From Deinococcus radiodurans R1 = ATCC 13939 = DSM 20539 (lineage in GTDB: Bacteria; Deinococcota; Deinococci; Deinococcales; Deinococcaceae): 32,000 bases of DNA. Each line of letters starts with the position of its first letter. Position 1 is the first letter of the stretch. Below, one piece after another: positions 16,830-24,729 of this stretch. The translations under genes were made by a program, and so were the position numbers. The notes beneath the pieces are model-generated. The model was not told the DNA's origin. It was given only the letters and a program-made list of their open reading frames with translations, and ran no database searches. The stretch lies in assembly GCF_000008565.1 (NCBI RefSeq), contig NC_000958.1, positions 145,467-177,466 of the forward strand. Reading direction: 5' to 3'.

Positions 16830-19655
16830 ATGACGTTTGATATCGGTTCAATGGTGCGTGCCCGTGGGCGCGACTGGGTGGTGCTGCCTGAAAGCGGCGC
16901 GGACTTCCTGCTGCTGCGTCCCCTGGGCGGCAGCGACGCAGAAATCGCGGGCGTGTACGCCGGGGAGGGTGGGGAGGAGGTCACCTCGGCAGCGTTCGCC
17001 CCCCCGAGCCCCGCGGCCTTCGGGACCGCGAGTGGAGCGCGGCTGCTGCTGAACGCGGCCCGGCTGGCGGTGCGCAGCGGCGCTGGGCCCTTCCGGTCCC
17101 TGAGCCGCCTGGGCGTGGAGCCGCGCCCGTACCAGCTGGTGCCGCTCCTCATGGCCCTGCGCCAGAGCCCGGCCCGGCTGATGATCGCCGACGACGTGGG
17201 CATCGGGAAGACGGTGGAAGCCGCCTTAATCGCCCGCGAGCTGCTGGACCGGGGCGAGATCGACCGCCTGACGGTCCTGTGCCCACCGCACCTGGCGGGA
17301 CAGTGGGTGGAGGAATTGCGGGTCAAGTTCGGCATCGACGCGGTGGCCGTGCTGCCCGGCACCGCCCGGCGCCTGGAAAAGGGCTGTAACCCTGGCCAGA
17401 GCGTCTTTGAGCGCTACAAATTCACGGTGGTCAGTCTCGACCTCGTGAAGTCGGACCGGTGGCGGCAGGACTTTCTGACCAATGCGCCCGATTTCGTCAT
17501 CGTGGACGAGGCGCACGCCAGTGCTGAGGGCGAGGGCATGGGCACCAAGCGCCACCAACGCTACCGGCTGCTCGAAGACCTCGCCAGGAAGGAAGACCGG
17601 CACCTGATTCTGGTCACCGCCACGCCCCACAGCGGCAAGGAAGACGCCTTCCGCAGCCTGCTGCGGCTGCTCAATCCCGACTTCGCCAGGCTGCCACTCG
17701 ACCTCAGCGGGGCGCAAAACGAGCGTGCCCGCGCGACCCTGGCCCGGCACCTCGTGCAGCGCGGGCGTAAGGACATCGCAGAGTACCTGCAGGAAGACAC
17801 TCCTTTTCCAACCCGGCGCGACGCCGAGCTGCACTACGCCTTGCACCCGGACTACGCCGCCCTCTTTGACGACGTGCTGGCCTACGCCCGCGAGAGTGTC
17901 CACGTGCCCGGCGAGGCCCAGAGCCGCACCCGCATTCGCTGGTGGGCGGCGCTGGGGCTGCTGCGGGCGCTGGCGAGTAGTCCGCAGGCCGCCGCCGCCA
18001 CCCTGCGCGAGCGGGCCATAGCGGCGGACGACGGAGAGACCGACGAAGCGGTGATCGACCGGCTGGGCCGCGAGCTGGTGCTTGACCCCGAAGAGGGCGA
18101 GGACAGTGCCCTGGACATGACTCCTGGGGCTCAGGTGGACGGTGAGCAGAGTGAAACCACCGGGCGGCTGCTGACGCTGGCGAGCCGGGCCGACGCCCTG
18201 GCCGGGGCCAAGGACAACAAACTGAAGCTGCTGACGGCGCAGGTGCAGGGGCTCGTCGATCAGGGATTTGCGCCCATTGTGTTTTGCCGCTTTATTGCCA
18301 CCGCAGAGGCCGTGGCCGAGCACCTCCGGGGGGCCCTGAAAGGCAGCGAAGTGCTGGCGGTCACCGGACGTCACACGCCCGACGAGCGGGTGGACCGGGT
18401 GGAAGAGCTCGCCCGCGCTGAGCGGCGGGTGCTGGTGGCGACCGACTGCCTCTCTGAGGGCATCAACCTGCAGGCGGCTTTCAGCGCTGTGATCCACTAC
18501 GACCTGCCCTGGAACCCCACCCGACTCGACCAGCGCGAAGGCCGGGTCGACCGCTACGGGCAGGCCAGCCCCGAGGTGCGGGTGCTGACCATCTACGGCG
18601 AGGACAACCGCATTGACACCCTGATTCTGGAGGTGCTGGTGCGCAAGCACCGCTTGATTCGCGCCACGCTCGGCACCAGTGTGCCGGCGCCGGAAGAGGC
18701 CGAGAGCCTGCTCGACGTGCTGCTCAGCCGGGTGCTGAACGCGCAGGGGCGCGAAGTGATTCAGCCGCTGCTCTTTGAGGACGTGCAGGCCTTTGACCTC
18801 AAGTGGCGCGACGCCGCCGAAGGGGAAAAGAAATCGCGCAGCCGCTTTGCCCAGAACAGCATCCGCCCCGAAGAAGTGGCGAGCGAGTTGCGGGCAGTCC
18901 GTGAAGCGCTAGGGGACGCGCACGCGGCGCAAGACTTTGTGCTCGACGCTCTGAGTGGAGCCGGCGTGAGTGTTTCACCGCGTGTGGACGGCAGCTTCGA
19001 GGCCGACCCCGCGCAGGCGGACGTGAGGCCCGAGTACCGCGATTTCCTGCGTGGGGCGCGGCGTTTTCGCTTCGACGCCCAGACTGAGCGCGGCGTGACC
19101 CCGCTTGCCCGCAACCACCCCCTCGTGGAGCAGCTCGCCAGTACGGTGCTGGGGCAGGCGCTCGACGCTCCGCTGGAGGCGGCGGCCAAACGGGTGGGCG
19201 TGATTCGCACCTCCAAGGTTGCCACGCAGACCACGCTGCTGCTGCTGCGTCACCGCTTTCACCTCACGGGGCGCAAGGGCAACCGGACGTGGCAGACGCT
19301 GGCTGAGGAACTCGACCTGCTCGCCTACGCGGGGCGGGCACCGGCGGACGGGAAAGGCGGCTGGCTGGACGCCGAAGCCACCCGCGCCCTGCTCGCCCTG
19401 ACGCCCGAAGGCAACCTCGACCCGGTGCAAAAAGAAGACCGCTTGACCCGCGTTCTGGCCGACGTTCAGGGCCTGGACGGGCCCCTGATGGCCCGCGCTC
19501 AGGAGCGCGCCGCCGCGCTGCTGGAGGCGCACGAGCGGGTGCGTGGGGCCGCGCGCGGGCAGGGCGTGACCTACAGCGTGGAACCGCCCGGCCCCCCAGA
19601 CCTGCTCGGCATTTACGTCTTCCTGCCCCTGCCCAAACTTGGAGCCCTGTCTTGA
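16830..19655 (+). CDS. SNF2-family helicase (DrmD-like)
   Basis: 941 aa. Motifs DDVGIGKT (17190-17213), DEAH (17505-17516), TATPHSG, and helicase-C [12 protein letters not shown]...[22 protein letters not shown]. It starts 2 nt after the preceding stop, with GGAAGGA as RBS. Confidence 0.9.
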
Positions 19656-24177: not shown

Positions 24178-24729
24178 GCCGGAGTCAATAGTGACATGAA
24201 TAGTTATGTCTTGGATTACAGTGCACGTCAGAAAGTCGGCGGTACACATCTGACTTACAACTACCTCAAGCAATTCCCCGTCCTCCCACCCTCCGTCTTC
24301 AACCCTTCCCGCCTTGCCTTCATTACGCCGCGTGTGCTGGAGCTGACGTACACGGCCCACGACCTGTCCGGCTTTGCCCGTGACCTCGGCTACGCGGGCG
24401 AGCCGTTTACCTGGGATGACGAACGCCGCTTCTGGCTGCGGGCCGAACTGGACGCGCTGTATTTCCTGCTGTACGGCATTGAGCGCCCGGACGTGGACTA
24501 CATCATGGAGACGTTCCCCATCGTGAAGCGCAAGGACGTGGCAGCGCACGGAAGCTACCGCACGAAGGAAGCGATTCTGAGCGTGTACGACGAGCTGACG
24601 GCGCTGGGGCTGGAGCGCCTGCACGAGTACGCCAGCCGTGTACCGGGCGGTGCGGTGGCGGGCGGCTGGGGGCCTGAATGAGTTCATTACGTAGCACTTG
24701 TCAGGATTCTGGTACTATCTGGTGGTACC

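Follow-up and report, generated by a model that had tools for sequence, protein, structure and literature searches.

How does a bacterium tolerate an apparently intact helicase-nuclease whose partner methyltransferase has been destroyed? The question is posed by a three-gene operon on megaplasmid MP1 of Deinococcus radiodurans R1, contained in a stretch of 32,000 nucleotides (contig NC_000958.1, positions 145,467 to 177,466 of the forward strand; hereafter the window), in which two large helicase genes are followed by a DNA methyltransferase gene carrying both a nonsense codon and an insertion sequence (IS). A previous sequence-only reading of this DNA had taken loss of a methyltransferase beside an active effector to be autotoxic and offered three non-exclusive ways out: effector genes that are silent or subtly inactivated, a system that dispenses with self-methylation, or another methyltransferase that protects the same motif. 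Here, we assign the operon to a known class of anti-phage system, examine the lesions and the integrity of the remaining genes, and conclude that the finding is real and is explained by existing knowledge: intact helicases beside a broken methyltransferase gene are no paradox, because loss of the methyltransferase is not self-toxic in the closest relatives of the system.

The domains encoded and the arrangement of the genes identify the operon as an ARMADA Type I anti-phage system, one that had already been catalogued. ARMADA, the disARM-related Antiviral Defense Array, was described by Bell et al. 2025 (bioRxiv 10.1101/2025.09.15.676423), whose Table S1 lists AE001826.1 DR_B0135 (AAF12564.1) as an 'ARMADA Type I helicase'; since this entry and the published definition point to the same assignment, we name the genes armC (DR_B0135), armA (DR_B0136) and a broken armB. 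The first encodes a YprA-family helicase with a DUF1998/MrfA zinc module and a C-terminal Vsr-type PD-(D/E)xK nuclease that is predicted to be active, and it is adjoined by genes for a BrxHII/RapA-like SNF2 helicase (ArmA) and for a PglX-like, YeeA-related N6-adenine methyltransferase (ArmB), the latter present though inactivated. In keeping with a Type I gene order, the YprA-like helicase-nuclease (11707-16827) comes first, then the SNF2 helicase (16830-19655) and then the methyltransferase (19652-24681), with no fourth gene: we found no GajB/UvrD-like ArmD among the genes downstream of armB (HicA, HicB, a SecB-like open reading frame (ORF), McrB and McrC). The D. radiodurans locus departs from a typical Type I system in that its armB is dead through a nonsense codon and a copy of ISDra3. 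With armA beginning 3 nt past the armC stop and the armB start overlapping the armA stop by 4 nt, the three genes are, judging by this spacing, translationally coupled.

A scan of one genome per species returned at least 369 loci with a relative of the SNF2 protein, and 80 of them, ascertained through armA, were kept for family comparison. The three genes co-occur in many of these 80 loci, from Deinococcota, Chloroflexota, Actinomycetota, Cyanobacteriota and archaea, ordered either helicase-SNF2-methyltransferase or SNF2-methyltransferase-...-helicase; the reversed order, seen in cyanobacteria and archaea, belongs to the Type I definition of Bell et al. 2025.

The armB reading frame opens at 19652 and reads ...PDEAFSAI up to an in-frame TAA, beyond which the same frame continues (coordinates in Table 1). 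Four Deinococcus orthologs (from D. piscis, D. radiophilus and both copies of D. marmoris) have glutamate, encoded by GAA or GAG, at the position of the stop, in the context [L/I]-E-G-D-D-K/R. This agreement indicates that the stop is a G>T nonsense mutation of codon 610, and it falls between the S-adenosylmethionine (SAM)-binding motif DPACGSGHF (residues 479-487) and the catalytic NPPW (residues 768-771). The second lesion, in the region encoding the C terminus, is an ISDra3 element with terminal inverted repeats reading TTGACTCCGG... on the left and ...CCGGAGTCAA on the right, and it matches copies of ISDra3 from other replicons at 100% identity. Removing the element together with one TA yields a continuous ORF of 1320 codons, whose only internal stop is the TAA of the first lesion and whose product aligns from residue 2/3 to residue 1319/1320 with two intact orthologs, at 76% identity in D. 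piscis and 69% in D. marmoris; the fragment beyond the element is 84% identical to the C-terminal fragment of D. radiophilus. ArmB also matches PADLOC models for Type IIG enzymes and, weakly, for PglX. We scored the D. radiodurans proteins against columns at least 95% conserved across 29 full-length homologs, and besides the two gross lesions ArmB deviates at 3 of 171 such columns (S102G, G127T and Y307H). As read from its gene, then, the R1 ArmB methyltransferase is dead, in agreement with a published methylome of R1 in which N6-methyladenine motifs are absent (below). The second hit is unremarkable: armB accounts for a third of the operon, and further damage to a gene already dead is neutral. 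We considered and rejected an abundance of TA targets as the cause of the lesions in armB, since armB, 33% of the operon by length, contains 40% of its TA sites, too slight an enrichment to account for them.

Both lesions lie where the sequence-only reading had placed them. That reading had allowed that a comparison of alleles might expose them as artifacts; instead, both are present in all seven D. radiodurans assemblies that we aligned base by base over 15 kb. These assemblies are identical to the window except where single nucleotides are missing from homopolymer runs (such as C7 and G6), and no informative polymorphism within the species was found among the seven over this interval. More broadly, the 14 kb around the locus are 100% identical to megaplasmid MP1 of D. 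radiodurans R1, and 99.9-100% identical in at least 14 D. radiodurans MP1 assemblies. The 1-nt deletions account for spurious split annotations of armC, armA and armB in some records (CP015083, OV024758, CP050118, CP050122 and CP094464), and the split helicases annotated in some assemblies are homopolymer length errors. The affected sites include window positions 13194, 15790, 16999 and 19921, with the C7 run at 13194 shortened in four assemblies. Within ISDra3 itself, the transposase is spread over two frames (within 23166-24177) that join at a run of nine adenines (23637-23645) and is annotated in RefSeq as a single coding sequence of 1009 nt; the Orsay R1 assembly (CP068793) has seven adenines at this run and a deleted G at 23405.

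The two upstream ORFs are uninterrupted, as had been stated, and of the claim that both are helicase/nuclease genes one half stands: both products are helicases, but the nuclease domain belongs to the 1706-residue ArmC only, the 941-residue ArmA being an SNF2 ATPase. ArmC matches Pfam DEAD (1.6e-28), Helicase_C and MZB (5.7e-9), and its best PADLOC match is DruE at 296 bits, with DrmA models reaching only 68 bits. It carries the motifs GTGSGKS (residues 110-116), DELH (222-225), QRSGRAGR (996-1003), PDFAY (1641-1645) and IDGPHH (1654-1659). Its last ~100 residues match Pfam DUF559 weakly but consistently (E=4.9e-4; 20.4 bits, against a cut-off of 20.6), and a profile of 17 ArmC homologs compared with the PDB returned Vsr/DUF559-type endonucleases in all of the top five places (E 0.06-0.12). 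The nuclease signature E...P..Q...PDF.Y...DG..H...D, invariant in the family, is retained in the D. radiodurans protein. ArmA matches Pfam SNF2-rel_dom and Helicase_C, and among PADLOC models DpdE (PDLC02853, 769 bits), DrmD (264 bits) and those labeled BrxHI and BrxHII (209 and 186 bits); its motifs include GIGKT and DEAH.

A first way to account for the viability of the strain would be that the helicase genes are themselves non-functional, either silenced, for example by the upstream element ISDra1, or altered outside the positions we examined, leaving no toxic effector. ISDra1, though no member of the system, does adjoin its promoter region, ending 230 bp upstream of armC, and the only sigma-70-like site found, a weak candidate at 11462-11490, straddles the right end of the element (11476) and is not wholly native sequence. 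Between the five Deinococcus loci the upstream regions do not align, which makes the survival of a native armC promoter unreadable from them and its loss possible. The genes themselves argue the other way. They contain no stop or frameshift, the split annotations having the origin described above; ArmC deviates at 0 of 227 conserved columns and ArmA at 2 of 173, both conservatively (L118M and R184K); and Walker A and B, motif VI, the cysteine (zinc) clusters and the Vsr motif are all retained, which leaves nothing of the inactivating substitutions in catalytic motifs that had been envisaged. Moreover, DR_B0136 is listed with a fold change in the RNA-seq data of Li et al. (PMC6712171), among the DNA-repair-related differentially expressed genes, and armA is therefore transcribed. 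We regard non-functional helicases as improbable, and the first of the proposed ways out as not supported.

The premise that made the locus puzzling fares no better. In ARMADA Type II, defense is abolished whichever of the four genes, armB among them, is deleted, and defense is also lost in an ArmB mutant of the NPPW motif (N971A). Strains with armB deleted were obtained and grown, both plasmid-borne and chromosomal; the chromosomal armB deletion in enterohemorrhagic Escherichia coli (EHEC) EDL933 was made and grown, with lysis occurring only upon infection. Likewise, Class 1 DISARM shows no autoimmunity when both of its methylases are absent. These results indicate that the assumption of autotoxicity fails for the nearest tested relatives, and that the methyltransferase acts in them as a component of the machinery and not as an antidote. 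By analogy with these two systems, a dispensable self-methylation, the second of the three options, would be in line with experiment. The ARMADA papers are silent on how self is discriminated from non-self.

The third option, that a different methyltransferase encoded in the genome modifies the ArmB motif and so shields the chromosome from an active effector, has in its favor that R1 encodes other predicted N6-methyladenine (m6A, or 6mA) methyltransferases, among them the YeeA/COG1002-type ORF14075P. [quoted passage not shown] The ORF of the MmeI-family enzyme DraRI is reported to be disrupted as well. We give a protecting methyltransferase hardly any credence. In the same study, Li et al. 2019 (PMC6712171) found that deletion of ORF15360P, which is armB, lowered bulk 6mA as measured by liquid chromatography-tandem mass spectrometry, and called the gene 'involved in 6mA modification'. 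Such a role sits uneasily with a gene that is broken twice and with their own SMRT data, which contain no m6A motif.

The explanation that we favor, and consider probable though far from assured, is that ArmB is an obligatory subunit whose loss turns the system off harmlessly, leaving armC and armA as transcribed, undecayed relics. ArmB would supply DNA-sequence recognition or licensing to ArmA and ArmC, in the manner of PglX in BREX or of Mod and HsdM in Type III and Type I restriction-modification. Once it was lost, the helicase-nuclease would be directed at no DNA, and the cell would be unharmed and also unprotected; armC and armA would still be intact and transcribed because the inactivation was recent and nothing has selected for their removal. 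That ArmC and ArmA need ArmB for activity in Type I is probably correct, by extrapolation from Type II, and the locus as a whole is most likely functionally dead.

Supporting a recent event, ISDra3 is identical to its other copies and armC shows few amino acid changes: along the D. radiodurans lineage, changes in otherwise-conserved codons number 80 synonymous to 4 nonsynonymous in armC, and 67 to 8 in armA. Judged by these two features, inactivation of armB looks recent relative to species divergence. Within armB the corresponding counts are 39 synonymous to 5 nonsynonymous upstream of the stop and 40 to 13 downstream of it (Fisher p=0.001 for the downstream part against armC), and amino acid singletons specific to D. 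radiodurans are ~3-5 times denser downstream of the stop (10.3 per 100 columns, compared with 1.9 in armC). This faster change is weak evidence for drift, as the same region of armB in the D. marmoris lineage, where the gene is intact, has a similar ratio of nonsynonymous to synonymous changes (16:54). Given such ratios in intact-gene lineages and the mosaic histories of these genes, we do not accept long-standing pseudogene drift of armB as proven.

The strong purifying selection on armC along the D. radiodurans lineage invites a further explanation, namely that ArmC and ArmA were co-opted for housekeeping DNA repair in D. radiodurans and kept on that account. The YprA/MrfA family has a branch of DNA-repair helicases (Bell et al. 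2025), and DR_B0136 appears among repair-related genes in the expression data already cited. DR_B0135, however, falls in the defense branch and not in the repair branch, the locus is plasmid-borne and sits in a defense island with HicAB and McrBC, and intact helicases accompany a broken armB in E. coli and in other Deinococcus species as well. A repair role is in our judgment very improbable.

Broken copies of armB do recur outside D. radiodurans. On pRadio2 of D. radiophilus (NZ_CP086382, ~17510-18365), an IS982-family element flanked by a 5-bp duplication, ATCTA, splits armB at about codon 1195, with armC and armA intact; with the element removed the gene reads ...THHLSSFITP..., exactly the D. 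piscis sequence. In the second D. marmoris copy (NZ_JNIV01000114, 12340-12676), armB ends at codon 833, where it gives way, at the end of the contig, to an ORF with a match to Pfam DUF6444 (46.9 bits). DUF6444 is presumably the N-terminus of IS66-type transposases, and the truncating element is probably of that type. In all, armC and armA are intact in five of five Deinococcus loci, and all three independent lesions in the genus lie in armB, a third of the operon (p ~0.04 on the expectation that hits scale with gene length). Type I operons with an intact armB are those of D. piscis (NZ_BNAL01000025) and of D. marmoris scaffold 24.

Similar cases occur in Type II. The E. coli operon armABCD, located in ATCC 8739, was found in 535 of 5426 complete genomes, and in a sample of 60 evenly spaced loci from these 535 we found 4 with a pseudogenized armB beside armA, armC and armD annotated as intact, a comparison that is biased because product names would hide helicase pseudogenes in the other loci of the sample. 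The four comprise an internal stop in strain W444, a frameshift or deletion in O145 strains RM12367-C1 and RM9873-C1, and a Mu-like prophage inserted in armB of O157:H7 strain Z869. Among the 80 related loci, disruptions confined to armB outnumber those confined to armC by 8 to 4 (binomial p=0.09); this family-wide excess is suggestive only, biased as it is by ascertainment through armA, by the quality of metagenome-assembled genomes and by divergence of the target-recognition region.

These patterns bear on the main rival, in which ArmC, alone or together with ArmA, would still act on invading DNA in the absence of the methyltransferase, after the fashion of DrmAB in Class 1 DISARM, armB being a modulating layer and the helicases remaining under selection. 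It would explain the apparent preference for armB, the only gene hit in the three Deinococcus loci and the four sampled E. coli loci, and it agrees with an ArmC that is flawless at all 227 conserved positions and an armA that is transcribed. Weighing against it, the armB deletion and NPPW mutants of ARMADA Type II lose all measured defense, the purifying selection on armC spans the whole species branch and is not assignable to the time after armB was lost, and the samples are small and drawn from loci ascertained through armA. We therefore hold this rival to be unlikely, if deserving of a hearing. A more general form, in which armB is a preferred 'off switch' of ARMADA while ArmC and ArmA retain some methyltransferase-independent function (residual defense of the DrmAB kind or repair-like processing), strikes us as rather doubtful; if true, it would explain both why independent lesions are confined to armB, in three loci of Deinococcus and no fewer than four lineages of E. 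coli, and why the larger helicase genes are flawless.

Several points nonetheless weigh against ArmB as an obligatory subunit of a system now switched off. The requirement for ArmB is carried over by analogy from ARMADA Type II, which has the fourth gene armD. Class 1 DISARM defense survives the loss of single genes, resting mainly on DrmA and DrmB, and ArmC, as a DrmAB-like fusion, could by the same analogy keep some activity. Taken at face value, the lower 6mA after deletion of ORF15360P (Li et al., PMC6712171) would mean residual ArmB activity. Finally, a fully dead operon would not obviously produce a bias in which armB takes all three independent Deinococcus lesions and armC and armA take none.

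Comparison with characterized systems places the locus more exactly. The ARMADA Type II operons armABCD of E. coli NCTC 12900, ATCC 8739 and EDL933 encode homologous ArmA, ArmB and ArmC; they differ in their order, armA-armB-armC-armD, in having a GajB/UvrD-like ArmD with a RelE-like domain, which is missing from the D. radiodurans locus, and in an ArmC lengthened by additional, inactive EEP and Vsr domains that the D. radiodurans protein lacks. Class 1 DISARM consists of DrmD, DrmMI, DrmA, DrmB and DrmC, and shares with our locus an SNF2 helicase and an adenine methyltransferase, ArmA matching DrmD (264 bits) and ArmB matching DrmMI (219 bits). Its DrmA and DrmB are equivalent to the helicase-plus-DUF1998 portion of ArmC, but instead of two separate proteins they are here fused in one of 1706 residues. 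The second, cytosine methyltransferase of Class 1 DISARM is lacking, and no PLD domain that could represent the nuclease DrmC was found in the ORFs of the operon or its flanks, the nuclease being Vsr-type and fused to ArmC.

The large PglX-like N6-adenine methyltransferase and the accessory SNF2-type helicase recall BREX, in which PglX is needed for defense and is no stand-alone antidote; BrxA/B/C, PglZ and BrxL are lacking, however, and a YprA-type helicase-nuclease stands in their place. Druantia Type III (DruH, DruE) resembles the locus in that DruE and ArmC both belong to the YprA family of helicases and combine DUF1998 with a nuclease fused at the C terminus, and differs in that the D. 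radiodurans locus has no DruH, a nuclease of the Vsr rather than the PLD type, and SNF2 and methyltransferase partners. As regards classical restriction-modification, in which loss of the methyltransferase is autotoxic, the operon contains no stand-alone sequence-specific restriction endonuclease, its only nuclease being a small Vsr-type domain on a translocase, and in ARMADA Type II defense depends on the methyltransferase.

The assignment corrects the annotation and citation of these genes. DR_B0135 to DR_B0138 form one ARMADA Type I operon in which armB is a pseudogene. Reading DR_B0136 as an independent 'HepA RNA helicase' is mistaken, as is reading the methyltransferase fragments as two separate 'class I SAM-dependent DNA methyltransferases'. 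Natural loci of Deinococcus and E. coli in which armB is inactivated and the helicases are intact agree with the laboratory deletions, and suggest that ARMADA, like BREX and Class 1 DISARM, does not act as a restriction-modification pair of toxin and antidote. The R1 locus is in effect a natural armB knockout that can be used to address the self/non-self question, although it reveals no new mechanism by itself.

Table 1. Coordinates of the operon, its lesions and neighboring features in the window.
Feature	Position	Strand	Description
armC (DR_B0135)	11707..16827	+	YprA-family DExH helicase, DUF1998/MZB zinc module, C-terminal Vsr/DUF559-type nuclease domain; intact, 1706 aa
armA (DR_B0136, 'HepA')	16830..19655	+	BrxHII/RapA-like SNF2 helicase; intact, 941 aa
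armB 5' fragment	19652..21481	+	Codons 1-609 and stop; N-terminal domain, SAM-binding motif I; Pfam MmeI_Mtase, N6_Mtase, Eco57I; PADLOC DrmMI 219 bits
Lesion 1	21479..21481	+	In-frame TAA replacing Glu610 (GAA>TAA)
armB middle fragment	21482..23123	+	Codons 611 to ~1157; NPPW (21953-21964), presumed target-recognition region; Pfam Eco57I; same frame as 5' fragment
Lesion 2, ISDra3 (IS630 family)	23124..24188	+	1065 bp; duplicated TA at 23122-23123 and 24189-24190; Pfam HTH_33, DDE_3
armB 3' fragment	24191..24681	+	Codons ~1158-1320; in frame after IS removal
ISDra1 (IS4 family)	10270..11476	+	Terminal inverted repeats of 47 nt, 10270-10316 and 11430-11476
HicA/HicB toxin-antitoxin pair	24730-24996, 25009-25542		Downstream of armB
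SecB-like ORF	25542-26099		Weak PD-T4-9_C match
McrB	26096-29005		Downstream defense gene
McrC	29005-30333		Downstream defense gene
repA	30778-31971	-

In RefSeq the region reads, in order, ISDra1 transposase, 'DEAD/DEAH box helicase' (WP_010883981), 'helicase-related protein' (WP_010883982), two 'class I SAM-dependent DNA methyltransferase' fragments, ISDra3 transposase and a 'hypothetical protein', followed further downstream by HicA, McrB, McrC and plasmid RepA. The HicA/HicB pair, the SecB-like ORF and McrB/McrC mark the locus as a small plasmid defense island adjoining repA. The D. radiophilus locus on pRadio2 shows the same armCAB-hicA synteny and is likewise plasmid-borne, adjoining repA/parAB. 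In D. piscis, the ArmB frame (12817 to beyond 17000 of its locus) runs at least 65 codons past the end of the other Deinococcus ArmB proteins, which could be a C-terminal extension or a fusion.

Cyanobacterial ARMADA Type I loci have a gap of 1-1.6 kb between armB and armC that holds differing cargo ORFs, among them a REP-associated transposase-like ORF read from the opposite strand; in the loci examined this cargo is variable, and no conserved fourth gene was found in the gap. The cyanobacterial ArmC proteins carry an N-terminal extension of ~100 residues that is lacking in Deinococcus. Upstream of the D. radiodurans operon, the transposase annotated for ISDra1 matches DDE_Tnp_1 (10492-11475), and just inside the left end of the element (window 10319-10356) lies a perfect, loopless palindrome of 19+19 nt, AACAGTCGGCCCCATCAAG / CTTGATGGGGCCGACTGTT.

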